Shown here: positions 17,058-38,445 of the stretch, one piece after another
How the letters are laid out: each line of letters opens with the position of its first letter
Numbering within the stretch: the stretch's first letter is position 1
Assembly: GCA_036644995.1 (NCBI GenBank)
Contig: JAVXOZ010000002.1
Span: 50,128-114,127, forward strand
DNA from: Clostridiales bacterium
GTDB lineage: Bacteria > Bacillota > Dehalobacteriia > UBA7702
DNA: 64,000 nt
Direction of reading: 5' to 3'
Notes under the pieces: generated by a model
What the model saw: only the letters and a program-made list of their open reading frames with translations
Database searches by the model: none
What the model was told of the DNA's origin: nothing
Translations under genes and position numbers: made by a program

Positions 17058-17181
17058 AGGCTGTTGATAAAGTCTGATATTCGGTAAAATCCCTTCCCAT
17101 CCACTGCCTATGCACATATAGGTACACTGCACAGTGGCTGTTCAGGGAGTTTTACCGAATCTAAGGCTTTCTTAACAGCCT
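17058..17181 (+). repeat. Interspersed ~124 bp imperfect-palindromic repeat, copy A
   Basis: AGGCTGTTGATAAAGTCTGATATTCGGTAAAATCCC...GGGAGTTTTACCGAATCTAAGGCTTTCTTAACAGCCT; terminal inverted repeats with a palindromic core. Followed by GACAATCTG. Bracketed by the 17 bp direct repeat TTAAAAAATTTACGGGT (17041-57 and 17194-210). Confidence 0.9.
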
Positions 17182-17310
17182 GACAATCTGCACTTAAAAA
17201 ATTTACGGGTTTATCTGCATTAAAGCACATTGCATCTCCATATTTTTAGGTTTTAGTGAGTTTAAGCTTTCTTAAATCTTTGGAATTTATGGATTATTGC
17301 TAAATTAAAT

Positions 17311-17351
17311 AAAAAATCCCGAAGAACCGTTTTGGTTTTTCGGGATTTTTT
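17311..17351. terminator. Bidirectional intrinsic terminator hairpin
   Basis: AAAAAATCCCGAAGAACCGTTTTGGTTTTTCGGGATTTTTT: a 10 bp stem flanked by A-run and T-run. Lies between the convergent AKR and hydrolase genes. Confidence 0.65.
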
Positions 17352-17490
17352 GGCGGAAAATTGCCATGTATTTAATTTTATATTAAGTTAAGTGATAAAG
17401 TGATTTTTTTTTAAGTTATCGGTAAATATTACAAATTTGTTTGGCTTTAATATGTGAAAATTTTAGATTTTAAAAAGCTGTTAAAAGGCT

Positions 17491-18354
17491 TTACCATTTA
17501 TTAAACCAGTCTACGGTGAGGTCAAAAGCATCTTTACGGGCTTTGGCACAGAGCTCGGGGAATTTGCGTTCGTTTTTTTGGGTTCGTGCCCAAGCTGTTA
17601 CCGGGGTTAAATAGTGGCTTGCTATATCAAAATTAACGTGTTTATATTCATAGGGGAAATTATTGGCTTTTAATCTATCCACAATGTGTTTTGCTCCGTA
17701 TTCTGAAGGCCACATATCATCTGTGGTGGTGGATAAAACCAAAACGTTGCCGTGAATTTTTTCCACGGGAATAATGGCTTCTTCGGGGATGGGGTGGGTA
17801 AAAAGCTCATCATAGCGATAGAGCATTAAAAGTTTACGCCCTTTCCATACACGCTTTATAAAATTCCAGCCTGCACAGCCCTTCATGTGAAAATAGGGCA
17901 ATGGACGGTTTTTATAGCTCCAAGATGAGGTTCTTATAGGGAATTTATACCATGTTACCCCTTCATAAATATAGCAACTGGGTGTAACCCCCACTACGCA
18001 GGTAATATCAGGGAAAAGTGTGGCGGAGGTTAAGGTTAGTTCTGTGCCCTTTGACCAGCCGTACATTCCTATTTTTTTTATTGTGCCATTTTGGTATTTT
18101 TTTAGCCAATTAACGGCATTTTCAATGTATTCTATGGGAATATTGGAAAGTTTATAGCTTAAACCCTTAACGTACCAATAGCCCACTGCCAAAGCAAAAA
18201 AACCATTTTCTGCCAATAATTTTGCTATGGTTTTGGCATTTTCAATACCGCCATCGCTGCCTGTAACAACTATTATGGCTTTATTTGTTTTGGTTTTTGG
18301 GGTAAACAAGGTACCCATAAATCCCTCTTTTTTTAAATCTATATCAAGACTCAT
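17491..18354 (-). CDS. Alpha/beta hydrolase, BAAT/acyl-CoA thioesterase C-terminal-domain family
   Basis: GWSKG nucleophile elbow and dienelactone-hydrolase-like fold. True start is ATG 18354 (MSLDIDL..., RBS GGGAGGT). The track's upstream extension to 18519 reads through repeat copy B. Confidence 0.8.
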   Translation of the reverse strand: MSLDIDLKKEGFMGTLFTPKTKTNKAIIVVTGSDGGIENAKTIAKLLAENGFFALAVGYWYVKGLSYKLSNIPIEYIENAVNWLKKYQNGTIKKIGMYGWSKGTELTLTSATLFPDITCVVGVTPSCYIYEGVTWYKFPIRTSSWSYKNRPLPYFHMKGCAGWNFIKRVWKGRKLLMLYRYDELFTHPIPEEAIIPVEKIHGNVLVLSTTTDDMWPSEYGAKHIVDRLKANNFPYEYKHVNFDIASHYLTPVTAWARTQKNERKFPELCAKARKDAFDLTVDWFNKW

Positions 18355-18459
18355 GAAAACTTTACCTCCCAAAAATAGTAGCTTTAATAAAAAGTCAAAA
18401 ATATTATAACATATTTTGTTTAGTAAGGATAGATAAGACTTTTTAAAATAGAAATCTTT

Positions 18460-18573
18460 AGGCTGTTTATAAAGTCTGATATTCGGTAAAATCCCTTCCC
18501 ACCCACTGCTTATGTACATCTAAGTATACTGCATAGCCGCTGCTCAGGGAGTTTTACCGAATCTAAGGCTTTC
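18460..18573 (+). repeat. Interspersed palindromic repeat, copy B
   Basis: AGGCTGTTTATAAAGTCTGATATTCGGTAAAATCCCTTCCCACCCACTGCTTATGTACATCTAAGTATACTGCATAGCCGCTGCTCAGGGAGTTTTACCGAATCTAAGGCTTTCTTAACAGCCT, with the right-hand extension ATCTTGCCAAAAAACTATGTTTTT. Confidence 0.9.
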
Positions 18574-18668
18574 TTAACAGCCTTACATCTTGCCAAAAAA
18601 CTATGTTTTTCAAAAATCTTTTTAATCACTCATTATTGGCTTGGGTATTTGGTAAAAGCCAAAGGAAT

Positions 18669-18731
18669 ATTCAGTGTTCTATATCTAACATTCAGTGTTC
18701 TATATCTAACATTCAGTGTTCTATATCTCAA
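18669..18731. repeat. Tandem direct repeat, 21 bp x 3 (ATTCAGTGTTCTATATCTAAC)
   Basis: Two exact copies plus one variant copy in the spacer between repeat copy B and the end of arcC. Confidence 0.9.
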
Positions 18732-18825
18732 TATGGGGAATGGTTTTTGTTTGGTAAAAAATATGGAATACAGCCGTGTGTAAATTTTTAAGGAATACAC
18801 TTTGGTATAAAGCATGGTAATGGAA

Positions 18826-18880
18826 AACCGCACCAAATTGATGTTGCCTATGTTTTATAATCATTGGCAATTTGGTGCGG
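18826..18880 (-). terminator. Hairpin downstream of arcC (13 bp stem CCGCACCAAATTG/CAATTTGGTGCGG, 27 nt loop)
   Basis: Perfect 13 bp inverted repeat 25 bp past the arcC stop; short T-run on the minus strand. Confidence 0.4.
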
Positions 18881-18904
18881 CTTGTAATCTATTTTAATTT
18901 AGTG

Positions 18905-19849
18905 CTATTGGATAATGCGAGTGCCGGATTCCCCTAAAATTGCTGCGGGAGCTTTTTCTAAAGAGGCAATTACCGCCACTCTGTTCTTGCCGCTTTTGGC
19001 AAAATCTATGGCGGCTTCTACCTTGGGTAGCATACTGCCAGGGGCAAAATGACCTTGGGCTATGTATGCTTCAGCCTCGGCTACGGTTATTTCTTTTAGC
19101 TCTTTTTCATCGGGTTTGCCAAAATTTATGGATACTCTGTCCACCGCTGTTAGTATAAAAAAGTATTCCGCATCCACCAAGGCTCCAAGCTTTGCTCCGG
19201 CAAAGTCTTTATCTATAACTGCGGCTACGCCTTGGTAGTGGTCTATGCTTTCTTTAATCACCGGTATGCCACCGCCGCCACAGGCTATAACCACAAATTC
19301 GTGGTCTAAAAGATTTAAAATGGAATCTTTTTCCACTATATTTTGGGGCTTGGGTGATGGTACCATGCGGCGATAGCCACGCCCTGCATCTTCCTTAAAT
19401 ACCATATGTGGGTATTTTTTCATTAAATCTTCGGCTTGGCTTTGGGTGTAATAAGCCCCAATGGGCTTTTGGGGGTTTTCAAAGGCAATGTCGTTTTTAT
19501 CCACTTCCACTTGGGTTACCACTGTGGCAACGTGCCAAGGCATATTTTGATTCCGCAGCTCCGCTAACAAGGCTTTTTGCAGGTGATAGCCTATGTAGCC
19601 TTGACTCATGGCGGCGCATTCCGCCAGTTCCATAGGTGGGATTTTTTCGGAATTTTCGCTGCCGTAATCAAAGGCATTTTTAATAACCCCAACTTGAGGG
19701 CCGTTGCCGTGGGTAAGTACTATTTCATAACCTTGGGCAATTAAGCCCACCAATGCCGGAGCGGCTATTTTTAATTTTTCCTGCTGTTCTTTGCCATCGT
19801 TGCCCAAGGCATTGCCACCTAAGGCAATTACAATTCTTGGTTCTTTCAT
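18905..19849 (-). CDS. arcC: Carbamate kinase
   Basis: MKEPRIVIALGGNALG... amino-acid-kinase fold. Start ATG 19849 with RBS TAAGGAGAAA; the track's longer ORF to 19957 extends into repeat copy C. Confidence 0.9.
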   Translation of the reverse strand: MKEPRIVIALGGNALGNDGKEQQEKLKIAAPALVGLIAQGYEIVLTHGNGPQVGVIKNAFDYGSENSEKIPPMELAECAAMSQGYIGYHLQKALLAELRNQNMPWHVATVVTQVEVDKNDIAFENPQKPIGAYYTQSQAEDLMKKYPHMVFKEDAGRGYRRMVPSPKPQNIVEKDSILNLLDHEFVVIACGGGGIPVIKESIDHYQGVAAVIDKDFAGAKLGALVDAEYFFILTAVDRVSINFGKPDEKELKEITVAEAEAYIAQGHFAPGSMLPKVEAAIDFAKSGKNRVAVIASLEKAPAAILGESGTRIIQ

Positions 19850-19916
19850 GTTTCTCCTTAATGGTCTGAAAATTTCCCTTAGAGCAATATCCTTCAGATT
19901 GATGAAAATTGCACTT

Positions 19917-20039
19917 AGGCTGTGGATAAAGTTTGCTATTGGGCAAAATCCCTTCATCGTGACTGCTTATGTACATCTAAGTACATAAGCAGACGCTGCT
20001 CGGGGAGTTTTACCGAATCTAAGGCTTTCTTATCAGCCT
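19917..20039 (+). repeat. Interspersed palindromic repeat, copy C (inside the agmatine deiminase operon)
   Basis: AGGCTGTGGATAAAGTTTGCTATTGGGCAAAATCCC...TGCTTATGTACATCTAAGTACATAAGCAG...GGGGAGTTTTACCGAATCTAAGGCTTTCTTATCAGCCT. Extension ...TTTTTGACAATCTG runs to 20075. Bracketed by the 20 bp direct repeat AGATTGATGAAAATTGCACT (19896-915 and 20076-095). Confidence 0.9.
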
Positions 20040-20133
20040 AATATCTTGGCAAAAAACTATGTTTTTGACAATCTGAGATTGATGAAAATTGCACTAACGG
20101 CTTTTAAATCTGTTGATAGTAATTGGTGTTATT

Positions 20134-21225
20134 TTATGGTCTGGGAATTTGCTGGGTAATGCAGTGGATATTGCCGCCGCCCAAGAGAATTTCTCTGGCA
20201 TATATCCCCACAATTTCACGGTTGGGGAAGCATTTTTTTAAGGTTTCTGCGGCTTTTTCGTCGTTGGGGTCTTTAAATTTGGGATAAATAACAGCATTGT
20301 TGCAAATGTAAAAATTTACATAAGATGCCGCTAAGCGATCTCCTTCAACTCTGGGGAGTGTGCCGTTTACTGCATCTACACCTTGACTTTCTTCTTCGGT
20401 GATGAGGATGGGTTTGGGTAGGAGCATTTTGTGCACGTTTAATTTTCTGCCTTTGGCATCGGTGGAATTTTCCAAAACCTTTAAGCAGTTGGCGGAAATT
20501 TCATATTGAGGGTCGTTTTTATCCTCTGTCCAAGCTAAAATAACTTCACCCGGAGCGGCATAGGAAAAAATATTGTCCACATGGCCATTGGTTTCATCAT
20601 TGTAGATGCCGTTTTTAAGCCAGATGATTTTTTCCAGTCCCAAGTATTCTTTAAGTGTGTTTTCAATTTCTTCTTTGGACATATGGGGATTTCTGCCTTG
20701 ACTTAAAAGGCATTCCTCCGTGGTAATTAAGGTGCCTTCACCGTCTGTGTGGATGCTGCCGCCTTCTAAAATAAATTCATCTAAAGGGTAGTAATTTAGC
20801 CGCTCCGCTTCGCAAACTTTTTGTGCCAAGGCATCATCTTTATCCCAAGGAAAATATAGTCCGTCCACTAAGCCGCCCCAAGCATTAAAACGCCAATCTA
20901 CACCACGGGTTTCTTTGCCGTTTACCACACAGGTAGGGCCGCAATCACGTACCCAAGCATCGTCATTGGCAATTTCTAAAACTCTGACGTTATAGGGGAG
21001 CATTCCACGGGCATTGGCATATTGATCGGAATTTACCGCCACTGTAACTTCTTCAAATTTGCTGATTGCCGTTGCTACCTCTGTGAATACTTTTTGGGCG
21101 GGTTTGCCACCTAAACGCCAGTTATCTGTGCGTTGGGGCCAGATGATATAAGTGCTTTGGTGGGGTTCAAATTCCCCGGGCATACGAAAACCGTCTGCTT
21201 TGGGGCTTGTTTCAAATGCTCTCAT
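20134..21225 (-). CDS. aguA: Agmatine deiminase
   Basis: 363 aa; porphyromonas-type peptidylarginine deiminase fold; WVRDCGP and a C-terminal [13 protein letters not shown] catalytic Cys motif. Confidence 0.9.
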
Positions 21226-22599
21226 TTATTTATCTCCTTTTTCAAGTTTTTTTACGCTTTGGGCGGCTATTATTTCACCGATGACAACAGCCAAAACCGT
21301 GCCTGCTAAAATCGGAATTTTTAAGCCCAGCTCCTCGGGGTCTAAGCTTAAGGGCACTGCACTTAAAACCGTGGCAATGATGAGTAAACCAAAGGGTACC
21401 CATGTCATTAAGGATAGCTTTACTTTGCCGCCGCTGATTTTAAAGGGTCTGTGGATATCCGGCTCGGTTTTGCGGAGCTTTAAAAATGCCGGGAAAATTA
21501 AAATATAGGAAATTAAAAGGGTAATCATATTTAAGGAAAAGAAGCTCCAAAATAAATCTTCACTGGGGATTAACGGCGCAGCTAAAACCATAACACTGGC
21601 TATTACCCCATTCATGATATTGGCACCCAAAGGCATTTTGTTCTTTTTATTTTCCGAGGCAAAAACCTTGGGCATACTTTTATCTTGGGCGGCATATTGT
21701 GCCACATAGTTTACACCCAAAGACCAAGAAATTGGGTTGGCAATAATGGTGTAAAGAAATACCAAACCAAAAAGCAGCAGTAAAATTCCTGAGGTTTGCC
21801 CTGTTAGCATCATAAAGCTTTCAATTAAGCCGTTGGATGTGGTTAAATTCTCCACAGGGATGGCTACGCTGATGCCAAATGCTGTTAATATATAAAAACC
21901 TGCAATGAGGCAACCGCCAATTATTATGGCTTTTGGTATGTCCTTGGCAGGGTTTTTCATATCACCTGCAAAGGTAGTTACCACCTCAAAGCCCATGAAA
22001 TTAAAGAGGATAACGGCGATGAATGAAAGGCTCATAATATCAAAGGATGGTAACATGGATTGTACGGTAAATTCATTGGCTACACCTTTGGTTAATGCCA
22101 CGTAGATACCTAATCCACCCAAAAGCAGCATAATACCTGCTTTGAAAAAAGCGGCGATGTTTAAAATCCATTTACTTTCGGAAACCGGGTAAAAGCTTAC
22201 ACCTACCACCAGCCAAATATATAGTAGCTGTATGGCTAAAATCCAAAATATGGGGATATCCCAACCGGTAATTTGCAGTAAAATATCGGTGAAGAGCACT
22301 GCCAAAGAACCCATCCACAGGGGAAAGTTAATATAATAATACCAAGCTACTCTGGAGCCCCATTTGTGACCAAAGGCTCTTTTTACCCAATCGTAAATTC
22401 CCCCTTCATCTTCATAGGTGGTGCCCAATTCTGCGGATATTAAGCCATAAGGCAGAAAAAAGCCGATGAGGAGCACCAGCCACCAGAAAAATTGAGCGTT
22501 GCCTATTACCGCAGCAGGAGCCGCACTCTCCACCACCAAAACAATGCAAACTGCGGCTAATACTGCATCAAATAGGCGAAATTCTTTCTTTTTGGACAT
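21226..22599 (-). CDS. aguD: APC-family amino acid permease, putative agmatine:putrescine antiporter
   Basis: 457 aa, 12-13 TM APC fold; sits between ptcA and aguA. Confidence 0.75.
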   Translation of the reverse strand: MSKKKEFRLFDAVLAAVCIVLVVESAAPAAVIGNAQFFWWLVLLIGFFLPYGLISAELGTTYEDEGGIYDWVKRAFGHKWGSRVAWYYYINFPLWMGSLAVLFTDILLQITGWDIPIFWILAIQLLYIWLVVGVSFYPVSESKWILNIAAFFKAGIMLLLGGLGIYVALTKGVANEFTVQSMLPSFDIMSLSFIAVILFNFMGFEVVTTFAGDMKNPAKDIPKAIIIGGCLIAGFYILTAFGISVAIPVENLTTSNGLIESFMMLTGQTSGILLLLFGLVFLYTIIANPISWSLGVNYVAQYAAQDKSMPKVFASENKKNKMPLGANIMNGVIASVMVLAAPLIPSEDLFWSFFSLNMITLLISYILIFPAFLKLRKTEPDIHRPFKISGGKVKLSLMTWVPFGLLIIATVLSAVPLSLDPEELGLKIPILAGTVLAVVIGEIIAAQSVKKLEKGDK

Positions 22600-22611
22600 T
22601 CAAAAGCCCCC

Positions 22612-23622
22612 TTAGAATATTTCTGCCAATAAGGCGTCAATTTTATGTTTTGCGGTGTGAATGGCATATTCCGCAGGGTTGGCAACGCCCAAAAGATATA
22701 CAAGAATTGCCCGCATTGCGGTTAAGCGGTTTTCTGCTTGGTCAAAGGCAATGGAATGGGCACCATCCAAGGCTTCATCTGTAATTTCTTCCCCACGGGA
22801 GGCAGGCAGGCAGTGGAGCAATTTTACTGTGGGTTTGGCTTTTTTCAGCATATCCTCGGTAACTTGGAATTTTGGCATGAAGATGTTTAAGCGTTCTTCC
22901 TTGGATAATTCCGCATTGTAAAGCCCATACCAAACATCGGTGTATATGAAATCTGCACCTTCCAGTGCGGTATCTGCATTATCCGAAAGGGTAAAAGACC
23001 CACCGGAAATTTTGCAGTTTTCTTTGGCAATTTCTTGAAATTCATTATTTAATTGGTGGGTATTAGGGCCAAACTGGGTGAAGTGCATACCCATTTTAGT
23101 GGTAATCATTGCGGTGGAAGCACAAACCTGGGTGGCATCACCCACAAATACTATTTTTAAATCGTTAAACCGTGCATTGGCAGGTTTGTGCTCAAAAATT
23201 GTGGTGATATCCCCAATTTCTTGGGTGGGATGGTTGTAATCGGACATGGCATTTATCACAGGGATGGTGGCGTGTTGTGCTAAACCTGCCACTGTTTTAT
23301 GCTGATCTACCCTTGCCATGATGATATCCACCAACCGAGAGAGGACACGGGCGGTATCCTCCATGGTTTCGTGGCCCCCTAATTGGATTTGCCCCGGTGC
23401 CAGATATTGGGCATGGCCCCCTAATTGAGTCATTGCTGTTTCAAAGGAAACCCTGGTGCGTGTGGAGCTTTGCTCAAAAACCATGCCCAAAGTTTTGTTT
23501 GCCAAAAGTGGCGGATAGTAACCATCTTTTATGGATTTTTTTAAACCTACACCTAAATGAATCATTTTTAAAATGTCCTGCTTGGTGTAATCTTTTGTGG
23601 TGACTAAATCTTTTTGTTTCAT
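22612..23622 (-). CDS. ptcA: Putrescine carbamoyltransferase (ornithine carbamoyltransferase family)
   Basis: STRTRVSFE carbamoyl-phosphate motif, HPTQ and HCLPA motifs. Start ATG 23622 (MKQKDL..., RBS GGAGG); the track ORF to 23727 is an upstream extension. Context with aguD-aguA-arcC favours PTC over OTC. Confidence 0.65.
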
Positions 23623-23865
23623 AATAACCTCCAATTTCTTTTGGTTAATATACCCATAGAATTGTGGTTTATGTAAAAGAGAAGTGGGACTTTTTGACAA
23701 AAAATTAAAGCAAGAAAGACTTGCCAAGAAAAGTACTTTATGCTAAACTGTGTTTTGTAATGAGGCATACATGAAGTGTGCTCGATATAGTTTATAAATC
23801 CTTTTGATAGATAAACTTTGGTACCTATCTCGGAAAAGTTAAATATTGTATAAATATGTGAAGTA

Positions 23866-23900
23866 TGGAGCTTCCTCTTTTTGAGGGAGCTCTTTTTTAT
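23866..23900 (+). terminator. Intrinsic-terminator-like hairpin + T-run within the 5' leader of the ABC importer operon (candidate attenuator)
   Basis: GGAGCTTCCTCTTTTTGAGGGAGCTC followed by TTTTTTATT, 30 nt upstream of the SBP ATG. No upstream plus-strand gene. Confidence 0.45.
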
Positions 23901-23929
23901 TAATTAATGTAAATTTAAGGAGAGAAAAA

Positions 23930-25543
23930 ATGAAAAAGAAACTGTTACTTGTATTATGTTGTGTATTTGCCTTGGTGGCATTTACAGCTTGCGGTGGTGG
24001 GGGTAAGGATGCTGATACTGCCAAAAATGATGGTTCTACTGTTACCGTGGCTATGGGGGTTAATTCCGAGCCTACGGCAGGGTTTGACACATCTGCCAAC
24101 TGGGGATGTGCAGAACATTGCCATGAGCCATTGATTCAAAGTACCTTGGTAAACACCGATAAAGACATGAATATTGTTAATGATTTGGCAACGGAATATG
24201 GGGTTAGTGACGATTTATTAACTTGGACATTTAAAATCCGTGATGATGTGAAATTCACCGATGGGGAAGCACTCACCGCCAAAGATGTTGCTTTTACCTT
24301 TAACACCATTAAAAATTCCAAAAATTCCGAATTGGACTTGGAAATGATGGATAAAGCCGTGGCAGTGGACAATACCACCGTGGAATTGCAATTAAACAAA
24401 CCTTTTAACGCTTTACTTTATTCCGTGGCTGTGGTTGGGATTATGCCTGAACACGCTTATGGTAAAGATTATGCGGAAAATCCCATCGGTTCAGGGAGAT
24501 ATATGCTGGAACAATGGGATAAAGGGCAACAGATTATTTTAAAAGCCAACCCGGATTATTATGGTGAAGCACCTAAAATGAAAAAAGTTATAGTGGTATT
24601 TATGGCAGAAGATGCAGCTTTGGCTGCGGCTAAAAAAGGTGAAGTTGATATTGCCTACACTGCCGCCACATACAGCGACCAAAAAATTGACGGCTATAAA
24701 TTAGAAGCAGTAAAATCCGTGGACAGCCGTGGTATTTCCTTACCCACAGAACCAGCAGGTGGCACTAAAACAGAGGATGATGTAACCTATAAGGTGGGTA
24801 ATAATGTAACCTCAGATTTGGCTATTCGTCAAGCTATGAACTATGCTGTGGACCGTGAAGCTATGATGCAGAATGTGCTCAATGGCTATGGTACTGTGGC
24901 TTACAGCGTATCCGATGGTATGCCTTGGTCATCCCCGGATATGAAAGTGGAAACTGATGTGGAAAAAGCAAAAACTATTTTAAAAGATGGCGGTTGGGTT
25001 GATGGCGATGGCGACGGCATTTTGGAAAAAGATGGTCAAAAAGCTGAATTTACCTTGTATTACAGTGCCGATGATTCTGTGCGCCAAGGTATTGCCGCTG
25101 AATTTGCCAATCAAATGAAAAATATAGGTATAAATATTACATATAAAGGTGCAAGCTGGGATGATCTTTACCCCCATCAATACAGTGATGCCGTGGTTTG
25201 GGGTTGGGGTGCCAACTCCCCTGCGGAAACCTATAATCTTTATTACAGCAAAGGCTGGGGCAACTTCCCCTGCTACAACAGCGAAACTGTGGATAAATAT
25301 TTGAACCAAGCACTATCCACCAAAAATATTGAAGATTCCTATGAATTATGGCAAAAAGCACAGTGGGACGGAAAATCCGGTGTTGCTCCCCAAGGTGCGG
25401 CTACCTGGGTTTGGTTTGGCAATGTGGATCACCTGTATTTTACCCGTGAAGGATTAAATATCGGGGAACAAAAATTACATCCCCATGGTCATGGTTGGTC
25501 TTTGGTTAACAATGTGGATACTTGGACTTGGGAAACCAAATAA
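23930..25543 (+). CDS. ABC transporter substrate-binding lipoprotein, family 5 (Opp/Dpp/Nik type)
   Basis: 537 aa; lipoprotein signal MKKKLLLVLCCVFALVAFTAC; SBP_bac_5 fold. Confidence 0.9.
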   Translation: MKKKLLLVLCCVFALVAFTACGGGGKDADTAKNDGSTVTVAMGVNSEPTAGFDTSANWGCAEHCHEPLIQSTLVNTDKDMNIVNDLATEYGVSDDLLTWTFKIRDDVKFTDGEALTAKDVAFTFNTIKNSKNSELDLEMMDKAVAVDNTTVELQLNKPFNALLYSVAVVGIMPEHAYGKDYAENPIGSGRYMLEQWDKGQQIILKANPDYYGEAPKMKKVIVVFMAEDAALAAAKKGEVDIAYTAATYSDQKIDGYKLEAVKSVDSRGISLPTEPAGGTKTEDDVTYKVGNNVTSDLAIRQAMNYAVDREAMMQNVLNGYGTVAYSVSDGMPWSSPDMKVETDVEKAKTILKDGGWVDGDGDGILEKDGQKAEFTLYYSADDSVRQGIAAEFANQMKNIGINITYKGASWDDLYPHQYSDAVVWGWGANSPAETYNLYYSKGWGNFPCYNSETVDKYLNQALSTKNIEDSYELWQKAQWDGKSGVAPQGAATWVWFGNVDHLYFTREGLNIGEQKLHPHGHGWSLVNNVDTWTWETK

Positions 25544-25820
25544 ATTAACCAAATATATTACAGTAATTTGTGATACAATGGCATAATTATTAAGTAGACA
25601 TCTGAATTTAATCAATCTATAATAAACTTAAACTATGTTAAATTATTTTGAAAAGACTTTGGGCTTTTGAAAAATATGATAATAGGTAAATTCGCCAATC
25701 CCACCTTGCTTATGCACAATAAAGCACACAGCAAGTTTTAGGGTTGGCGTGTTTCCCTGTTTTAGGCTTAAGCCAAAACGCACCACTTGTATGATTGCAT
25801 TTTGTAGGACGAGGTTATTT

Positions 25821-26819
25821 ATGAATACCAAATATATTTTGGGCTTTGTGGGCAAAAACGTAATAAAGGCGATAACACTTCTTTTAGGGGTAAGTATTGT
25901 TGCCTTTATTCTCGTTTCCTTATCACCCATAGACCCTGTGCAAATGAATGTTGGCTCCACAGCTTATAATAATATGAGTGGGGAAAAAAAAGCACAGTTG
26001 GAATCTTACTGGGGGGTTGATACACCACCTGTGGAACGCTATGTTAATTGGGCTACGGATTTTATCAAAGGGGATATGGGGATTTCCTTGCGGTATAATG
26101 CCCCTGTTTCCGAGGTTATAGGGCATAAATTTTTAAATTCTATATTGCTAATGTCCATTGCTTGGGTGCTCTCCGGGGTATTTGGGTTTTTGCTGGGTAT
26201 AATTTCCGGGGTTTACCGAGGGCGGCTGCCTGATAAAATAATCAAGGGCTATGCCCTAACCTTGGCAAGTACCCCCACATTTTGGTTTGCCCTTTTGATG
26301 CTTATGGTATTTTCGGTATTTTTGGGGTGGTTTCCCTTTGGGATGAGTGTGCCCATTGGGGTAAGTGCCGCAGATGTAACTATATTTGATGGTTTGCAGC
26401 ATTTAATTTTGCCTGCTATTACTTTAAGTATTGTGGGGGTTGCCAATATTACCCTGCATACCAGAGAAAAAATGATTGATATTATGGAAAGCGATTATTT
26501 CCTTTTTGCTGTGGCTCGTGGTGAAAAAAAATGGAGCATTATCAAAAACCATGGTTTACGGAATATTCTTTTACCGGCAATGACCTTGCAATTTGCCTCT
26601 ATCAGTGAAATTTTTGGTGGTTCGGTATTGGTGGAACAGGTTTTTTCCTATCCCGGATTGGGTCAAGCTGCTATTACCGCAGGTTTGGGCGGGGATGTTT
26701 CCCTGTTATTGGGCATTGCGGTGGTAAGTGCGGCAATGGTATTTACCGGTAATCTCATTGCCAATGTATTATACGGGGTTATTGACCCCAGAATCAGAAG
26801 GGGGCAATTAAATGGCTAA
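25821..26819 (+). CDS. ABC transporter permease (OppB/DppB/NikB-like)
   Basis: 6 TM with the EAA-loop region. Start ATG 25821 (MNTKYILGF...) rather than the track's 25749. Confidence 0.9.
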   Translation: MNTKYILGFVGKNVIKAITLLLGVSIVAFILVSLSPIDPVQMNVGSTAYNNMSGEKKAQLESYWGVDTPPVERYVNWATDFIKGDMGISLRYNAPVSEVIGHKFLNSILLMSIAWVLSGVFGFLLGIISGVYRGRLPDKIIKGYALTLASTPTFWFALLMLMVFSVFLGWFPFGMSVPIGVSAADVTIFDGLQHLILPAITLSIVGVANITLHTREKMIDIMESDYFLFAVARGEKKWSIIKNHGLRNILLPAMTLQFASISEIFGGSVLVEQVFSYPGLGQAAITAGLGGDVSLLLGIAVVSAAMVFTGNLIANVLYGVIDPRIRRGQLNG

Positions 26820-27687
26820 TTCAACATTTGTTCCCTCTGTTCCCATTTTGGCGGAGGCAAAAAGACCTCGATTTAATCAGCGTAAAAAAACCATATTTAT
26901 ATTTAGTTTTGCCGTGGCGTTTTTGGCGTTTATTACTGTGGCAGGTCTTTTATTGAAAGAAACCGCAATGTTTACGGACTTTGCCCAAAAGAATTTGGCA
27001 CCTACTTTTTCCCATATATTCGGCACAGATAGAATGGGCAGGGATATGCTTGCCAGAACCATAAAAGGTTTATCCACCAGTATACTCATTGGTTTATTGG
27101 CATCTTCTGTTAGTGCTGTTATAGCTGCTATTTTAGGTACTATGGCGGCTACCATGGGTAAAAAGGTTGATGGTGCAATTACTTGGTTTATAGATTTAAT
27201 GATGGGGATTCCCCATATTGTGCTTTTGGTTTTAATTTCCTATGCTATCGGTAAAGGTTTTTGGGGTGTTACCATCGGGGTGGCAATTACCCACTGGCCA
27301 AGTCTTGCCCGTGTTATCCGTGGTGAGATATTGCAAATTAAAGAATCACCTTATGTTAAGGTTGCGGCTCGCTTAGGGCAAAATCCCTTAAAAATTGCCA
27401 TAAAACATATGATTCCCCATATTTTCCCTCAATTTTTAGTGGGCTTGGTGCTGTTGTTTCCCCATGCGATTCTCCATGAAGCCTCGGTTACTTTTTTAGG
27501 CTTTGGTTTATCACCGGAGCAGCCTGCTATTGGGGTTATTTTATCCGAAAGTATGTCCTATCTTTCCACAGGTATGTGGTGGTTGGCATTTTTCCCGGGT
27601 TTGGCTTTGATTCTTACCGTGGTGCTATTTGATATGGCAGGTGGCAGCTTGCGTAAGCTTATAGACCCATATAGTGCACAGGATTAA
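26812..27687 (+). CDS. ABC transporter permease (OppC/DppC/NikC-like)
   Basis: 291 aa; BPD_transp_1 fold; start overlaps the upstream permease stop. Confidence 0.9.
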   Translation: MANSTFVPSVPILAEAKRPRFNQRKKTIFIFSFAVAFLAFITVAGLLLKETAMFTDFAQKNLAPTFSHIFGTDRMGRDMLARTIKGLSTSILIGLLASSVSAVIAAILGTMAATMGKKVDGAITWFIDLMMGIPHIVLLVLISYAIGKGFWGVTIGVAITHWPSLARVIRGEILQIKESPYVKVAARLGQNPLKIAIKHMIPHIFPQFLVGLVLLFPHAILHEASVTFLGFGLSPEQPAIGVILSESMSYLSTGMWWLAFFPGLALILTVVLFDMAGGSLRKLIDPYSAQD

Positions 27688-27703
27688 GGGGAGGTAGATA
27701 AAA

Positions 27704-28714
27704 ATGAGTTGTTTGGACAAAAGACACGTTTTAGAAATAGAAGATCTTTCCATCTCCTTTACTCAATATGAAAAAGGTTTAAAACAAATAGATTTACAGG
27801 TTATTTCCAATCTTAATGTATCGGTGCATGAAGGGGAAATAGTGGCGGTGGTGGGTGCCAGTGGCTCGGGAAAAAGCTTACTTGCCCATGCGGTGCTGGG
27901 ACTTTTACCACCCAATGCCAATGTACAGGGAAAAATATATTTTGATGATGAATTGATGAGTGCGGAGCGGATAAAAGAGCTGCGTGGTGAAAATATCGCT
28001 TTGGTACCCCAAAGTGTTAATTATCTGGACCCTTTAATGAAAGTTGGCAGACAAGTGCGGAAAAGCAGAAGGGATAAGCAGTTTGTAAATGCCCAACAAG
28101 ATTTATTTAAACGCTATGATTTGGATAAACGCACCGATGAGCTGTTTCCCTTTGAATTATCCGGTGGTATGGCTCGTAGGGTGCTTTTATCCTCTGCTTT
28201 GATGGAAAGCCCACAGCTTATTATTGCTGATGAACCAACCCCAGGTATGCACCTTTCTTTGGCTAAAAAAGCCATGGCGGATTTTCGCAAATTTGCCAAT
28301 GAAGGCAATGGGGTTTTGCTCATTACCCACGATATTGAATTGGCTTTTGAGGTGGCGGATCGCATTGCTGTTTTTTATGCAGGAACCACTGTGGAAGAAG
28401 CAAAAATAGAAGATTTTAAAAGCGAAGAAACCTTGCGACATCCCTACACCAAGGCTTTATGGCGAGCTTTGCCCCAAAATGGTTTTCAGGCATTGCCGGG
28501 AAATCAACCCTATGTGAAGGATATGCCACGGGGTTGCCCTTTTGCGCCCAGATGCAGTGAATTTACCCCGGAATGTGAAGGGGAGATACCCTTAAAAATT
28601 GTGCGTTGCGGTACTGTGCGTTGTATTCATGGTGACCCTGCCGAGGTTCATCAGCATCATCAGCATGGAGATAAATTCCACCATCATCATGGAGGGGAGT
28701 GTCATTCAGAATGA
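27704..28714 (+). CDS. ABC transporter ATP-binding protein (OppD/NikD-like) with His-rich C-terminal tail
   Basis: Walker A GASGSGKS, signature LSGGMARR, and the C-terminal tail HGDPAEVHQHHQHGDKFHHHHGGECHSE. Confidence 0.9.
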   Translation: MSCLDKRHVLEIEDLSISFTQYEKGLKQIDLQVISNLNVSVHEGEIVAVVGASGSGKSLLAHAVLGLLPPNANVQGKIYFDDELMSAERIKELRGENIALVPQSVNYLDPLMKVGRQVRKSRRDKQFVNAQQDLFKRYDLDKRTDELFPFELSGGMARRVLLSSALMESPQLIIADEPTPGMHLSLAKKAMADFRKFANEGNGVLLITHDIELAFEVADRIAVFYAGTTVEEAKIEDFKSEETLRHPYTKALWRALPQNGFQALPGNQPYVKDMPRGCPFAPRCSEFTPECEGEIPLKIVRCGTVRCIHGDPAEVHQHHQHGDKFHHHHGGECHSE

Positions 28715-29334
28715 TTTTAGAAGCTAAAAATATTACATATGGCTATAAAAAAAATCAAGAGCCGGTGATAAAAAACTTTAACCTTGTGGCAAAAAGTCAA
28801 GAGCGGGTAGGGATTTTAGCTCCCAGCGGCTTTGGGAAAACCACACTTTGCCAACTGTTATCGGGATATTTGTATCCCAACAGCGGTGAGGTGCTTTTAG
28901 ATGGTAAACCATTGCCCAAAAAAGGTTATTGCCCTGTACAAATGATATGGCAACATCCGGAAAGAGTGGTAAATCCCCGTATGCGTATGGGGGATACCTT
29001 GGAAGAAGGCTTTGAAATTTCATCACGGATAATTGAAGGCTTGGGTATTGAAAAAGATTGGTATAATCGCTATCCCGGGGAAATTAGCGGTGGGGAAATG
29101 CAGCGGTTTTGTATTGCCCGTGCCTTGGGTGAAAAAACAAAATTTATCTTAGCAGATGAAATAAGCACCATGCTGGATTTGATTACCCAAAGCCAAATTT
29201 GGAATTTTTTACTCCAAGAAGTTGAAGAACGAGGTATTGGACTTATTGCGGTAACCCACAGCGATTCCTTAATGAACAGAGTGGCAACGAGAATAGTTAA
29301 TTTAGACAGCAATATTGAACAAGATTTGATATAA
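28711..29334 (+). CDS. ABC transporter ATP-binding protein (OppF/NikE-like, short form)
   Basis: Walker A APSGFGKTT, signature ISGGEMQRF. ATG 28711 with RBS GGAGGGGAG preferred over the GTG at 28699. Confidence 0.85.
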   Translation: MILEAKNITYGYKKNQEPVIKNFNLVAKSQERVGILAPSGFGKTTLCQLLSGYLYPNSGEVLLDGKPLPKKGYCPVQMIWQHPERVVNPRMRMGDTLEEGFEISSRIIEGLGIEKDWYNRYPGEISGGEMQRFCIARALGEKTKFILADEISTMLDLITQSQIWNFLLQEVEERGIGLIAVTHSDSLMNRVATRIVNLDSNIEQDLI

Positions 29335-29483
29335 AACCTCGGATTGTAAAAGATATGATGTGAAATTGTGTGGCAAAAAAATCCCTGAGGTTAAAATTGC
29401 TTATTATTGACTTTTTCGGGGAAAATTGATTTTATCCATAGTATTTACAGCTATTTACAGTATGTGCGAGGCTTTTTTGATAA

Positions 29484-32541: not shown

Positions 32542-33036
32542 ATGTATAATATATATTTAATCGGATTGATGGGGTCGGGGAAAACTGCCATTGGCAAAAT
32601 TTTGGCAAAAAAAATTCACCGTCGCTTTGTGGATACCGATGGAAAAATAGAAAAAGAATATAACTTGCCTGTGGCAAAGATTTTTGCCAACATGGGGGAG
32701 GCTGCCTTTCGTGATAAAGAAACCGAGGTTCTGCGTGATTTATCTAAGCGGAAAAACCGAGTGGTTTCCACGGGTGGTGGTGCTGTTTTGCGTAAAGAAA
32801 ACATTGATTTAATGAGAAAAAGCGGCAAGGTAATTTGGCTGAAACGTCGCCCGGAATTAATATTAACCGGTACACGGATTCATTTGCGACCCCTATTGGC
32901 AAAAGACCCCAATAAAATTTACGATATTGCCATAGAGAGAGAGCCTCTCTATGAAGCAGCCTGCGATTTTGTGGTAATAAACGAAGGCGATAAACATAAA
33001 ACCGTAGCGGACATATTAAAAAAGCTGCGAAAATAG
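32542..33036 (+). CDS. aroK: Shikimate kinase
   Basis: LIGLMGSGKT P-loop; 164 aa SK fold. Confidence 0.9.
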   Translation: MYNIYLIGLMGSGKTAIGKILAKKIHRRFVDTDGKIEKEYNLPVAKIFANMGEAAFRDKETEVLRDLSKRKNRVVSTGGGAVLRKENIDLMRKSGKVIWLKRRPELILTGTRIHLRPLLAKDPNKIYDIAIEREPLYEAACDFVVINEGDKHKTVADILKKLRK

Positions 33037-33346
33037 GTTTAAAGAACCCTTATTCAGTAACTAAAACCGAAAAAGTATTAAATTAAATACAGAGATTAAC
33101 ATAGTACGAGTTCTATTTTAGTAAAGAAACCCAATCTCCTCCCACCGCAGCAGGGGGAAGTTTGAAGGGGGAGAAGCTCCCACCTTCATTATACTAATAG
33201 CAAAAATCTTCGAAATCGGCAAAAGAATTTTTTGGATTTTATTAAAAAAGCTGCGAAAATAAAAAGGAATTTTGTCGCTTTTTTAGGTCTTTTTTCCCTC
33301 TGATTTATATATAATTTATATAAACATAATTGGTCGGAGGGTGCTT

Positions 33347-34862: not shown

Positions 34863-36432
34863 AATAGATGAAATAAAGCTTCCTATAAATTATAGCGATG
34901 TTGATTTGTATAATGCCGTTGCCAAACGGCTTAAATCTAAAGTGGGACAATTTAAAAATGTAAAATTGGTGCGGAAGTCCATGGATGCCCGAAAAAAAGA
35001 GCAAATTCACTTTGTGGTAGGGGTAACCTTGGATTTTGTGGGAAATGAAGATAAAAAGATTAAGCAGCTAAAAGATAAGAAAATAACTAAAGCTGTAAAT
35101 TTCTCCTATAAAATGCCCATGGTGGATTATGGTGGCAGATATAGACCTGTGGTGGTTGGTGCAGGGCCATGCGGTATATTTGCCGCTTTGGTTTTAGCTG
35201 AAGCAGGGCTTAAACCCTTGGTGATTGAAGGTGGCAAAGATGTTGTTGAGCGTAAAAAAGATGTGGAAAACTTTTGGCAAAAGGGGCTTTTTTCACCTTC
35301 CAGCAATGTGCAATTTGGTGAAGGTGGTGCAGGGGCTTTCTCCGATGGGAAGTTAACCACAGGCACTAAGGATTTGCGGCATCGCCGTATTTTGGCGGAT
35401 TTTGTTAAAGCCGGAGCACCTGAAGAAATATTGTATTTAGCCAAACCCCATATAGGCTCGGATAATTTACCACATGTGGTGGAAAATTTGCGGCGGCGCA
35501 TAGAGAATTTGGGTGGGGAATATCGTTTTTCTACTTTGTTAAAGGACATAATTGTGGAAAAAAATGCCGTTACAGGTATTGTGGTGGAAAGTGATTTGGG
35601 TACGGAAACTTGGGATTGCGACCGCTTGATTTTGGCTTTGGGGCACAGTGCCCGTAATACATATGAAATGCTATACAGCCATGGTGTGGCTATGGAGCCC
35701 AAGGCTTTTTCCTTGGGAGTTCGTATTGAACACAGCCAAAGTGCAATAAATATTGCTCAATTTGGGGTAGATGAATTTGGGGCGGCGGATTATAAATTGG
35801 CGGTGCATTTGCCCAATGGTCGCTCCGCTTACACTTTTTGTATGTGCCCCGGTGGGGTTGTGGTTGGTGCAGCATCGGAAAATGGTGGTGTGGTAACCAA
35901 CGGCATGAGTGTTTTTGCCCGAGATGGAGTAAATGCCAACAGTGCTTTGTTAATTGGGGTTACGCCCCAAGATTTTCCCGGGGAGGAGCCTTTGGCGGGA
36001 ATGCGGTGGCAAAGGGATATTGAGGCAAAAGCTTTTTTGGCAGGGGGCGGTGATTTTGGGGCACCATGCCAAAGATTAGGGGATTTTATGGAGTATCGTC
36101 CCAGTTTGAGCTGTGGAAAAATTTTGCCTACATATTTACCACGGGTGCAAATGGGAGAGGTTGCTTCTTGTCTTCCTGATTTTATTGGCGAGAGCATTGC
36201 CATGGCTATACCGCTATTGGCAGCTAAGCTAAAAATATTTGATGACCCCGATGCTTTGCTTACCGCACCGGAAACACGCAGCTCTGCCCCTGTGAAAATT
36301 CTTAGAGATGAAGGTGGGGAAAGCAGTATAAAGGGGCTTTACCCAGCAGGGGAAGGCAGTGGCTATGCAGGTGGTATTATGTCCTCGGCGGCGGATGGCT
36401 TGAAAATTGGAGAAAATGTTTTAAAATTTTAA
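34855..36432 (+). CDS. COG2509-type FAD-dependent dehydrogenase
   Basis: N-terminal ~90 aa domain, then VVVGAGPCGIFAALVLAEAG FAD motif; overlaps the upstream flavoprotein by 8 nt. Confidence 0.85.
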   Translation: MIRIDEIKLPINYSDVDLYNAVAKRLKSKVGQFKNVKLVRKSMDARKKEQIHFVVGVTLDFVGNEDKKIKQLKDKKITKAVNFSYKMPMVDYGGRYRPVVVGAGPCGIFAALVLAEAGLKPLVIEGGKDVVERKKDVENFWQKGLFSPSSNVQFGEGGAGAFSDGKLTTGTKDLRHRRILADFVKAGAPEEILYLAKPHIGSDNLPHVVENLRRRIENLGGEYRFSTLLKDIIVEKNAVTGIVVESDLGTETWDCDRLILALGHSARNTYEMLYSHGVAMEPKAFSLGVRIEHSQSAINIAQFGVDEFGAADYKLAVHLPNGRSAYTFCMCPGGVVVGAASENGGVVTNGMSVFARDGVNANSALLIGVTPQDFPGEEPLAGMRWQRDIEAKAFLAGGGDFGAPCQRLGDFMEYRPSLSCGKILPTYLPRVQMGEVASCLPDFIGESIAMAIPLLAAKLKIFDDPDALLTAPETRSSAPVKILRDEGGESSIKGLYPAGEGSGYAGGIMSSAADGLKIGENVLKF

Positions 36433-36477
36433 AATGTCTCTTGTGTAAAACAAGAAACACGGTTACAATATATATAT

Positions 36478-36600
36478 AGGCTGTGGATAAAGTTTGATAT
36501 TTGGCAAAATCCCTTCCCACCCACTGCTTATGTACATATAGGTACACTGCACAGTGGCTGTTCAGGAGTTTTACCGAATCTAAGCCTTTCTTAACAGCCT
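36478..36600 (+). repeat. Interspersed palindromic repeat, copy D
   Basis: AGGCTGTGGATAAAGTTTGATATTTGGCAAAATCCC...GGAGTTTTACCGAATCTAAGCCTTTCTTAACAGCCT + GACAATCTGA. Confidence 0.9.
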
Positions 36601-36696
36601 GACAATCTGAATTATATAAGGTTACGCAAATTTTTTAGAAACCTAATAACTGTTTTAATTGCTAACTAAAACCAAATATTTGATATGAGGTGATTT

Positions 36697-36867
36697 TATG
36701 AAAAAATTTATTGGTATTCTCTTGGGAGTGTTGGCATTGTGTGTTTCTGTGGCGGCATTTATCTATGTTTTTAATGATAAGGAATGTTGCCCCTGTAAAA
36801 AGGTAAAAGAATTTTTCACCGAAAAAGATTTCACTGTTCTTCCTATGGAAGAGGATGCTGAGGTTTA
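36697..36867 (+). CDS. Small (56 aa) single-TM protein with CCxC motif
   Basis: MKKFIGILLGVLALCVSVAAFIYVFNDKECCPCKKVKEFF...; RBS GAGGTG 7 nt upstream. Below the track's length cutoff. Ends 8 bp before the K+ channel gene. Confidence 0.45.
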
Positions 36868-36874
36868 ATTTTAG

Positions 36875-37660
36875 GTGAATAATACATTTCCGTGGAAGCA
36901 ATTACAAATGCCCTATGAATTTTTAATGGCGGTTCTTGCTTTTATAAACTTATATTTTTATTATTTTGAATTTACCGGCGCATTGGATCCTCAAGGGGTT
37001 GAGGTGGCTCATGTTATTGATATTGCTACGATTGTGATTTTTTCCCTTGATTATTTAGTGCGGCTTTATTTAGCCAAAGATAAAAAACATTATTTACGGC
37101 ACAATGTTTTGGACCTTATTGCTTTGATTCCTTTAAATCCTGTATTTAGAGGGGCAAGGCTGTTTCGTTGTGTGGTGCTTTTTGCCAGATTTTTTAAAAG
37201 GCTCCGTTCTTTTAGTTCGGTAAATATGTTTCTTTATGTTTCTTTTGGCACTATTGTTGTGCTTTTAACCTCGGCTTTATTGGTGGCTCCCTTGGAAGGA
37301 ATGACTTTTTTTGAAGGAATTTGGTGGGGGGTTGTAACCATAGCCACTGTGGGATATGGGGATTTTATTCCTGTTACCACTCCGGGGCGGATAATTGCCA
37401 TGGTTTTAATGTTTACCGGTATTGGTTTTTTGAGTTTTTTAACAGGTACTGTTACCACCCATTATGTAAATGCCCGTATGGAAAGGGTGAGTATTCATTC
37501 CCAGCGTGGCATTATAAAGCATTATCAAAAACAACTTTATCATTTTGATGATATGACGGGTAAGGATATAGATGATATGTGCCATGCTTTAAATGCCTTG
37601 AAAAGCCAAGATTTAAAGGAAAAGGCGGCTAAGGAAAAGCCTAAAACCATTGGTGACTGA
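36875..37660 (+). CDS. Voltage-sensor-type 6TM potassium channel (TVGYGD selectivity filter, S4 with R every third residue)
   Basis: Pore VVTIATVGYGDFIPVT; S4-like RGARLFRCVVLFARFFKRLRS. Confidence 0.85.
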   Translation: MNNTFPWKQLQMPYEFLMAVLAFINLYFYYFEFTGALDPQGVEVAHVIDIATIVIFSLDYLVRLYLAKDKKHYLRHNVLDLIALIPLNPVFRGARLFRCVVLFARFFKRLRSFSSVNMFLYVSFGTIVVLLTSALLVAPLEGMTFFEGIWWGVVTIATVGYGDFIPVTTPGRIIAMVLMFTGIGFLSFLTGTVTTHYVNARMERVSIHSQRGIIKHYQKQLYHFDDMTGKDIDDMCHALNALKSQDLKEKAAKEKPKTIGD

Positions 37661-37881
37661 TTATTTTAGATTTTAACAAATTCTGGTATTGAGATAAAAC
37701 TTTGAGTTTTTTGAAATATAATATGGAAAAGATAAGGAAATTGCAGTTTTTGGGAATTTGTCGGTATATGTGATTTTATAAAGCTATGGGTAAAATATTT
37801 GGTTTATTGGTCTATATATAAGGAAGAAAAAAATAAATAATTATATTGGGGTTGCCCAGAGTCCACTTGAGTTTTTTATTG

Positions 37882-37946
37882 AAGTGAATCCTTTTCATTA
37901 GACATATGTTTTGTTTAACGAAAGGGATTCACTTTAATTTTTATTT
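37882..37946 (+). terminator. Intrinsic terminator-like hairpin (13 bp stem AAGTGAATCCTTT/AAAGGGATTCACTT) + T-rich tail
   Basis: Inverted repeat followed by TAATTTTTATTT; ~220 bp downstream of the channel gene. Confidence 0.45.
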
Positions 37947-38074
37947 AGGGGCTTTTTTATGGTTAAATAAAGGGTAAAGCCATATTTTTTAATATTAAGA
38001 AGTGATGCAATAATAGAGTAAGGCATATTTTTTATTTAAGGGTATAATTTGGCAATAATTGGAGAACATAATTT

Positions 38075-38445
38075 AGGCTTTGGATAAAGTCTGATATTCG
38101 GCAAAATCCCTTCATCGTGACCGCTTATGTACATTTAAGTACACTGCACGTCCCCGATTCCGTGAGTTTTGCCGAATCTAAGCCTTTCTTCAAAGCCTAT
38201 GATTAGGATAAAGTCTGATATTCGGCAAAATCCCTTCATCGTGACCGCTTATGTACATTTAAGTACACTGCACGTCCCCGATTCCGAGAGTTTTACCGAA
38301 TCTAAGCCTTTCTTCACAGCCTATGATTAGGATAAAGTCTGATATTCGGCAAAATCCCTTCTCAGCCACTGCTTATGTACATCTATGTACACTGCATAGC
38401 CGCTGCTCAGGGAGTTTTGCCGAATCTAAGCCTTTCTTAACAGTC
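38075..38445 (+). repeat. Three tandem copies (E1 38075-38198, E2 38205-38321, E3 38328-38445) of the interspersed palindromic repeat, immediately upstream of the rpoB promoter
   Basis: Each unit is ~120 bp (AGG(CTTTGG)ATAAAGTCTGATATTCGGCAAAATCCC...GAGTTTT(A/G)CCGAATCTAAGCCTTTCTT(C/A)A(A/C)AGCCT). Units are separated by ATGATT. The last is followed by GACAATCTGA. Confidence 0.9.

Follow-up and report, generated by a model that had tools for sequence, protein, structure and literature searches.

A lineage-restricted, MITE-like family of hairpin repeats with a single replication-strand orientation in a Clostridiales bacterium

Introduction

Correia elements (Neisseria), RUP (Streptococcus pneumoniae) and ERIC (enterobacteria) are bacterial MITEs (miniature inverted-repeat transposable elements), which make short target duplications of fixed length (e.g. 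TA) and are found in both orientations. Here we describe a family of hairpin-forming repeats in a 64,000-nt stretch of DNA from a Clostridiales bacterium (contig JAVXOZ010000002.1), called the window below, in which all coordinates are given. The repeats are similar to the Correia, RUP and ERIC type in their length of about 100-150 bp, their non-coding sequence, their hairpin-forming arms, their tens to hundreds of intergenic copies, their target duplications and their restriction to a lineage. They differ in that the duplications vary between 8 and 35 bp and may comprise whole hairpins, and in that all copies keep a single orientation with respect to replication; nothing in the databases searched was similar to them in sequence.

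In behaviour, the closest analogue is found among autonomous insertion sequences (ISs). IS1630 of Mycoplasma fermentans, a member of the IS30 family, targets inverted repeats that vary in sequence and duplicates these, giving duplications of 16-26 bp, and has terminal inverted repeats of 27 bp (PMC3317919, PMC2853133). The likeness is one of behaviour only, as the ends were not compared, and IS1630 is an IS of 1.2-1.4 kb with its own transposase, whereas the family described here carries no gene. IS1272 and TnSha1 of staphylococci (IS1182 family) insert into terminator hairpins at their stems and have no specificity for primary sequence (PMC4923244). In contrast to our family, in which the hairpin is duplicated and the orientation fixed, IS1272 deletes part of the hairpin, makes no duplication and inserts in both orientations. 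Replication-linked orientation bias has been reported in Firmicutes for ten IS families, IS30 included (PMC3971601), and a strong bias of this kind, together with dependence on a folded hairpin, is what our family shares with IS200/IS605 and the PATE and REPIN elements (PMC3971601). IS200/IS605 elements make no target duplication, have short hairpins and use a fixed target of 4-5 nt, and in these features our family does not resemble them.

The analysis presented below indicates that the repeats form a genuine lineage-restricted MITE-like family, that is, selfish DNA of an ordinary kind in an unusual variant. They are probably non-autonomous transposons, moved in trans by a putative hairpin-targeting transposase.

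Results

Sequence reading and repeat detection found seven main copies (c1 to c7) in the window, all on the plus strand and all intergenic, as the first-pass annotation of this DNA had proposed. Each of the two arm patterns, allowing up to 3 mismatches, matched exactly these 7 sites, all on the plus strand, with 0 expected from 100 shuffles. The boundaries given earlier needed small corrections, the last two units of the array starting at 38199 and 38323 and not at 38205 and 38328. Two divergent members, x and y, had been overlooked, as had a long form of the tail and the target duplications at the flanks; x and y were detected with a covariance model built from 13 aligned units. The members in the window are as follows.

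c1: 17057-17181, plus strand, hairpin (148 bits), with the short tail GACAATCTG at 17182-17190
c2: 18459-18583, plus strand, hairpin, with the long tail module and a degenerate end; whole unit 18459-18619
c3: 19916-20039, plus strand, hairpin, with a 27-nt module at 20040-20066 and the tail GACAATCTG at 20067-20075
c4: 36477-36600, plus strand, hairpin, with a short tail at 36601-36609
c5-c6-c7: 38074-38198, 38199-38322 and 38323-38446, plus strand, head-to-tail array of 124-bp units with one tail only, at 38447-38455
x: 12983-13106, plus strand, divergent member (covariance model 73.8 bits on the plus strand, 36.7 on the minus strand)
y: 25659-25777, plus strand, divergent member (covariance model 33.3 bits on the plus strand, 9.5 on the minus strand)

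Further copies were sought in DNA of the same species, which comprised metagenome-assembled genomes (MAGs) named 'Clostridiales bacterium' (GCA_0366...) and the Logan assemblies SRR25820361-67, 98-100% identical to the window and about 120 kb in total. A search with the plus-frame pseudo-peptide that the repeat encodes retrieved two mis-annotated open reading frames (ORFs) and, through them, contigs L013 and L014, which added 40 kb of new same-species DNA; the concatenated minus-frame and plus-frame-2 pseudo-peptides, used as a protein query, gave no match. Besides the two divergent members of the window, 10 or 11 more units were found on other same-species contigs, namely five on L013 (at four loci, adjoining gyrB and gyrA), one on L014 and three on L098, plus variants on L004 and L002. 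On average, same-species DNA holds one element in about 8 kb. The extra copies were all taken from short-read contigs (MAG or Logan), and such contigs are prone to break at these repeats.

Contig L098 reaches about 8 kb to the left of the window and adds a solitary unit and a two-unit array. Its terminal unit is 100% identical to c5, and this end, taken together with L004, more likely reflects an assembly join induced by the repeat than a recent transposition; the terminal unit was not used as evidence of activity, and one of the three L098 units may be c5 itself. We also observed, at L004 4440-4900 and L098 9598-9898, that one MAG contig links the ion-channel/c5 region to an array that another contig has downstream of bioD, to the left of the window by about 8 kb; this linkage is either a repeat-induced mis-assembly or a real rearrangement.

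Direct repeats flank the elements. Locus-specific repeats of 10-35 bp were present at 7 of 11 loci, three of them perfect.

c1: 17039-17057 and 17192-17210, perfect 19-bp direct repeat ACTTAAAAAATTTACGGGT
c3: 19896-19915 and 20076-20095, perfect 20-bp direct repeat AGATTGATGAAAATTGCACT
c5-c7: 38062-38074 and 38455-38467, perfect 13-bp direct repeat GAGAACATAATTT around the whole array
L098a: repeat of 24-25 bp, 22-23 positions identical
L014a: repeat of about 28 bp
L013a: repeat of about 35 bp
L013b and the L013c-d pair: repeats of 10-12 bp
c4: short imperfect AT-rich repeat of about 8-10 bp
c2 and L013e: no clear duplication

These duplications are far beyond chance, an exact repeat of at least 8 bp having been found at only 2 of 3000 random positions, one of which was c1 itself. 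At L013a, L014a and L098a the duplication comprises a terminator-like hairpin in full, from foot to foot, and the T-run is kept in the right copy and missing from the left one. A hairpin also lies directly 3' of the tail at L013c, at the end of sister-species contig L105 and at unit 1 of sister-species contig L106. The left flanks have only a T in common, and no conserved tetra- or pentanucleotide precedes the left end.

Sister-species contigs (L104, L105, L106 and L107, from Logan runs ERR13284230, ERR14654798 and SRR16951081) were found by means of the carbamate kinase gene product, which is 76-79% identical (78-79% in the sisters with unoccupied sites), and they keep the local gene order. 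The spacer between aguA and arcC, which holds c3 and measures 285 bp in the window, has 18 bp in the sister species. At the position of c4 the spacer measures 137 bp in L105, contains no element and aligns across the insertion point, as compared with 266 bp in the window. The c3 and c4 positions are thus element-free in L104/L105. Members of the family do occur elsewhere in the sister lineages: L105 ends in a right end (...TAACAGCCT) with a long tail, adjoining the terminator of an oligopeptide-binding-protein gene, and L106 and L107 carry two divergent units. The sister units keep the motifs CTGATA, TCTAAG, CTTTCTTAA and ATCTG. Since the two positions are empty in the sisters and members occur there at other places, the family is old in the clade and occupies different sites in different species. 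Within the species, the c5-c7 array varies in copy number, with 2 units in MAG L002 and 3 in the window.

Comparison with the sister contigs yielded two observations on the surrounding genes. The block at about 17400-29400 (opp operon, ornithine carbamoyltransferase, permease, agmatine deiminase, carbamate kinase) is inverted relative to the block running from LGT to the ion channel when compared with L104/L105, and the sister contigs lack the gene for a BAAT_C-family hydrolase that the window has between c1 and c2.

The strict co-orientation noted in the first-pass annotation, whatever the direction of neighbouring genes, extends beyond the window. The same strand of the element lies on the G-rich strand (positive GC skew) at 14 of 14 same-species loci (7 in the window, 2 on L098, 4 on L013 and 1 on L014; 13 loci if the array at the end of L098 is c5 itself), and the sister contigs show the same polarity, L105 clearly and L106 weakly. 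With respect to transcription, in contrast, the copies vary: c2, c3 and those on L098 run antisense to operons of the minus strand, c4 and y run in the sense direction, and the remainder have convergent or divergent genes on their two sides. Copies in the opp-arc segment follow the chromosome-wide orientation even though this segment is inverted as compared with the sister species. Because the element stays on the G-rich strand whatever the local gene direction, its polarity tracks replication and not transcription. The G-rich strand presumably has the sequence of the lagging-strand template.

Alignment of 13 units showed that a full element is an imperfect hairpin of about 125 nt, running from T-AGGCTG to CAGCCT and followed by a one-sided tail. 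The ends taken to bound it are AGGCTGTTGATAAAG... and ...CTTTCTTAACAGCCT, or TAGGCTGTTGATAAAGTCTGATA... and ...TCTAAGSCTTTCTTAACAGCCT followed by the tail. The terminal inverted repeats, annotated earlier as 30-35 bp long, measure 32-33 nt per arm and are 84-85% complementary. Folding of either strand gives a single long imperfect hairpin (z-scores between -3.8 and -9.3), which bears out the earlier suggestion of a hairpin on either strand. The palindromic core, by contrast, had been attributed to some copies, and within the window it is perfect in c3 only. Where the palindrome is imperfect, the imperfection is itself conserved: there is a 1x1 mismatch, the internal loop is 3x3 (5'-GAU / 5'-CUA) and the apical region (CTTATGTAC-loop-GTACACTGCA) is asymmetric.

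The arms co-vary. Among eight diverse aligned members, both partners had changed in 19 of the 41 pairs, where shuffling gave 10.1 +/- 2.0 and reached 19 in 0 of 500 trials, and 85% of cells were paired as compared with 34-46% when the partners were slid. Divergent member x has the architecture, the GAU/CUA internal loop, the apical core and the TCTAA..TTCTT motif of the main copies with stem sequences that are almost wholly different, the stem changes being compensatory and the pairing retained. Two tandem 45-bp mini-units lie directly 3' of x at 13093-13182 (x region 12983-13182); each fuses the end of a right arm to the start of a left arm, so that they look like internally deleted copies. 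With DNA parameters the fold of the minus strand is the more stable one in all 17 units, and with RNA parameters in 13 of the 17; as the copies are related, this counts as one observation and not as 17. Counts of G-U versus A-C pairs on the two strands did not discriminate the strand of action.

The tail, which extends 9-36 nt outside the right arm of elements that measure 125-160 bp, occurs in two forms. The long form (GACATCTTG-CCAAAAAACTATGTTTTT-GACAATCTG, 6 of 13 units) contains a small A/T hairpin between the near-repeats ATCTTG and AATCTG, the optional module being 27 nt long; the short form is GACAATCTG alone (5 of 13 units), as expected from deletion between the two near-repeats. Units internal to arrays have no tail. 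A short tail after most copies had been reported from the window; it follows c1, c4 and c7 immediately, while in c3 it comes after the 27-nt module and in c2 it is degenerate.

The conserved pseudo-peptides described earlier are real, as six-frame artefacts of the repeat. Stops or 1-nt indels interrupt the frames in several copies, and the only long open frame meets a stop in copies with GGTAAAATCCC and is shifted by 1-nt indels in c3 and c4. The element is therefore non-coding.

The first-pass annotation did not recognise the repeat as a named element, and our searches agree, having returned nothing beyond chance. Rfam gave 0 matches at the gathering threshold over the whole window and only weak unrelated matches at E<=1 or E<=10 over the copy regions, the sole match overlapping an element (38193-38218, 16.4 bits, E = 7) being a chance one. 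The exact right-arm pattern had 0 matches in GTDB species genomes, IMG/VR and JGI metagenomes, and a more general right-end pattern matched only by chance within coding sequence and outside any hairpin context. With blastn, one copy had no match in plasmids and, in phages, only chance matches of 22-24 nt (E = 6). The covariance model and three nhmmer profiles found no match in 80 diverse Clostridia genomes (1.26 Mb). As for the taxonomic setting, no GTDB species representative is close, the best match of the FAD-dependent protein encoded beside the repeats being 53% identical.

Several known kinds of element were considered and rejected. A REP-like identity, one of the earlier suggestions, fails on size and on the presence of target duplications: REP/REPIN palindromes mobilised with a RAYT measure about 20-40 nt, against about 125 nt for this hairpin, and no RAYT gene was seen in the incomplete genome. 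PATEs derived from IS200/IS605 match in orientation bias; here, however, there are duplications, and the left flanks share only a T. An integron attC site, with R'' (RYYYAAC) 5' and R' (GTTRRRY) 3' and with cassettes arrayed beside intI, would have the reverse arrangement of GTT and AAC, which here lie in the left and the right arm, respectively, on either strand, and the copies are moreover scattered among core genes (rpoB, gyrB) with target duplications. No copy received a terminator-like call, the hairpin being followed by GACAATCTG and by no U-tract. A protein-coding gene and a CRISPR-like array were set aside, as their defining features are lacking. A promoter-like motif in the tail was also rejected, its frequency being no higher than expected by chance and its spacing not being conserved in the sister species.

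Regarding neighbouring genes, c2 sits between two minus-strand genes (BAAT_C-family hydrolase and carbamate kinase), c3 between the agmatine deiminase and carbamate kinase genes (minus strand), and y between the genes for the oligopeptide-binding protein and the first permease. The c5-c7 array has a terminator-like hairpin on one side and, on the other, a strong promoter-like site upstream of rpoB. This near-consensus site (TTGACA, 17 nt, TATTAT, with an upstream TG) is at 38505-38533, between the array and rpoB, which places the array upstream of the likely rpoB promoter and not in the rpoB leader. The importance attached at first to adjoining essential genes is not borne out. The elements sit in intergenic space of whatever kind is available, and the dense ribosomal operons at 46-64 kb have no copy, nor do the next 7.5 kb beyond them.

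Other features of the region were recorded along the way. A 205-bp insertion (33036-33240) varies among strains: the window, L003 and L005 have it, and L001 lacks it. A direct repeat of 21 bp, ATTAAAAAAGCTGCGAAAATA, perfect and including the stop codon of the shikimate kinase gene, lies on either side of the insertion, which has no inverted ends and is single-copy in all DNA examined; its only Rfam match, to rliB, scored 19.4 bits (E = 0.087), far below the gathering score of 40. The inverted repeat at 37878-37938, downstream of the ion-channel gene, has arms of 27 nt and a T-run after them; it is terminator-like and unrelated to the repeat family, and had only chance database matches, to miRNA models. 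No Rfam family was detected at gathering score in any part of the window; rpoB, rpoC and the S10, spc and alpha ribosomal operons lie within it, and ribosomal-protein leader RNAs are frequent at such operons. Finally, 7 kb right of the window end (L100/L101, about 13015-13300), a tandem array of 19-bp units such as GCATAGCAGAATCTAATAA lies between rplQ and an ECF-transporter ATPase gene, and two MAGs differ in it by 76 bp of copy number.

Discussion

A MITE was among the options offered in the first-pass annotation, and this is the reading that the evidence supports, through the inverted-repeat arms, the non-coding sequence, the many dispersed copies, the locus-specific flanking duplications and the sister sites without the element at c3 and c4. 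The elements are shorter than about 300 bp, end in terminal inverted repeats, carry target duplications of atypically variable length (8-35 bp) and are present or absent at orthologous sites. From this pattern we infer the involvement of a transposase, the family it belongs to, the geometry of its cuts and the cause of the polarity. The enzyme would be encoded elsewhere in the genome, outside the DNA examined, and would bind the ends of the element, the two arms acting as distinct left and right ends with a tail on one side only (ATCTTG, a small hairpin and CAATCTG, often cut down to GACAATCTG). Insertion would take place into AT-rich intergenic DNA, preferably at the foot of hairpin-forming sequences such as terminators, with cuts on the two strands that are widely and variably staggered. 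Repair would then duplicate 8-35 bp of target, at times a complete hairpin. Insertion, or survival afterwards, may be coupled to replication-fork polarity, such that the same strand of the element is always in the lagging-strand template.

Several points weigh against such a transposon. The cognate transposase, which the first-pass annotation had suggested looking for, was not found in the same-species DNA, which represents an incomplete genome; more generally, in these roughly 120 kb we saw neither a gene for a transposase, an integrase or a reverse transcriptase nor any longer element with the same ends. Among MAGs about 99% identical, insertion polymorphism of the family was not seen, all checked loci being shared and only the array differing in copy number. 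Copies at different loci are 77-94% identical, which gives no sign of very recent activity. The dyad symmetry spans the whole length and not the termini alone, and no part is better conserved across subfamilies and species than the apical core and the 3x3 internal loop; a whole-length palindrome with conserved loops exceeds what transposase-binding ends need, and fits recognition of a folded single strand. The ends are asymmetric, with a tail on one side only, and a strand bias of 100% is stronger than that reported for most DDE insertion sequences.

Whole-length symmetry and the conserved loop and core keep two rival explanations alive, one at the level of RNA and one at that of single-stranded DNA. 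An RNA-level element, acting as an mRNA 3'-end stabiliser, a processing site, an insulator or a minus-strand small RNA from a promoter within the element or its tail, and spread by an old, now secondary mobility, is unlikely. The very stable fold on both strands would suit it, as would the greater stability of the minus strand in 13 of 17 units (RNA parameters) and the conservation of the GAU/CUA loop and apical core while the stems co-vary across subfamilies and species. Member y, between binding-protein and permease genes, is in a classical REP-type position. However, orientation follows the replication strand and not local transcription, c2, c3 and the L098 copies being antisense and c4 and y sense; the empty c3 and c4 positions in the sister species indicate that no individual copy is conserved; and the elements have no U-tract 3' of the hairpin and no Rfam family match. 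Short-tail copies do carry a promoter-like TTGTCA-17-TAGATT on the minus strand, but such matches are no commoner than in shuffled sequence and the spacing varies in the sister species (17, 19 and 20 nt). Distinctly unlikely is a single-strand-DNA element of the HUH/Y1 type, either a PATE derived from IS200/IS605 or a REPIN moved by a RAYT, in which the lagging-strand hairpin would be the substrate and the 9-nt tail would hold the cleavage site. The location of the same strand on the G-rich strand (lagging-strand template) at every locus is the signature reported for IS200/IS605 (PMC3971601), the dyad symmetry and conserved internal and apical loops look as if a folded strand were recognised, and the right boundary is fixed 9 nt past the hairpin foot. 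Such families, on the other hand, make no target duplication, whereas here there are perfect duplications of 13-20 bp and of whole hairpins. Furthermore, no conserved tetra- or pentanucleotide beyond a T precedes the left end, the hairpin has 3-4 times the length of those in REP or IS200, all 17 (related) units fold less stably, with DNA parameters, on the strand that has the lagging-strand-template sequence, and the same-species DNA showed no gene for a Y1 transposase.

The variable duplications of 8-35 bp, the one-sided 3' tail and the palindromic target duplicated from foot to foot could also be the work of an unconventional integrase, either by target-primed reverse transcription of a hairpin RNA, as in a bacterial counterpart of SINEs, or by a Cas1/casposase-like attack on both feet of a palindromic target. 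The foot-to-foot duplication resembles the duplication of the repeat during CRISPR spacer integration, and the unrelated 205-bp insertion in the same species, with no inverted ends, also has a 21-bp duplication. We consider this very improbable, as the DNA examined encodes neither reverse transcriptase nor Cas1, none of the copies is 5'-truncated or has an A-rich or templated 3' end, and IS1630 already offers a conventional analogue for the duplications. It is quite doubtful, too, that a folded single strand is recognised at the replication fork, with insertion by a new mode in which a target hairpin on the lagging-strand template is attacked at both its feet, although such a mode would jointly account for the conserved loop and core, the absolute polarity, the one-sided tail and the foot-to-foot duplication of terminators. 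It may be intermediate between DDE insertion sequences that duplicate hairpins and single-strand HUH elements, or may be driven by a reverse-transcriptase- or Cas1-like integrase.

The family has practical consequences for the genomes that carry it. It breaks or mis-joins short-read assemblies, as seen at the ends of contigs L003, L005-L008, L098 and L105-L107 and in the chimera-like L004, and it yields spurious 'hypothetical proteins' in MAG annotations (P0001, P0002). In conclusion, if transposition by a hairpin-targeting transposase is the right explanation, the repeats would be a high-density MITE family of an uncultured Clostridia lineage, with a copy about every 8 kb and probably a few hundred in each genome. 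The family would combine three unusual traits, namely variable duplications able to copy entire terminators, complete replication-strand polarity and strong conservation of internal structure. It would then offer a compact natural substrate on which to study target choice and cleavage by hairpin-targeting transposases and the coupling of transposition to the replication fork in Firmicutes.

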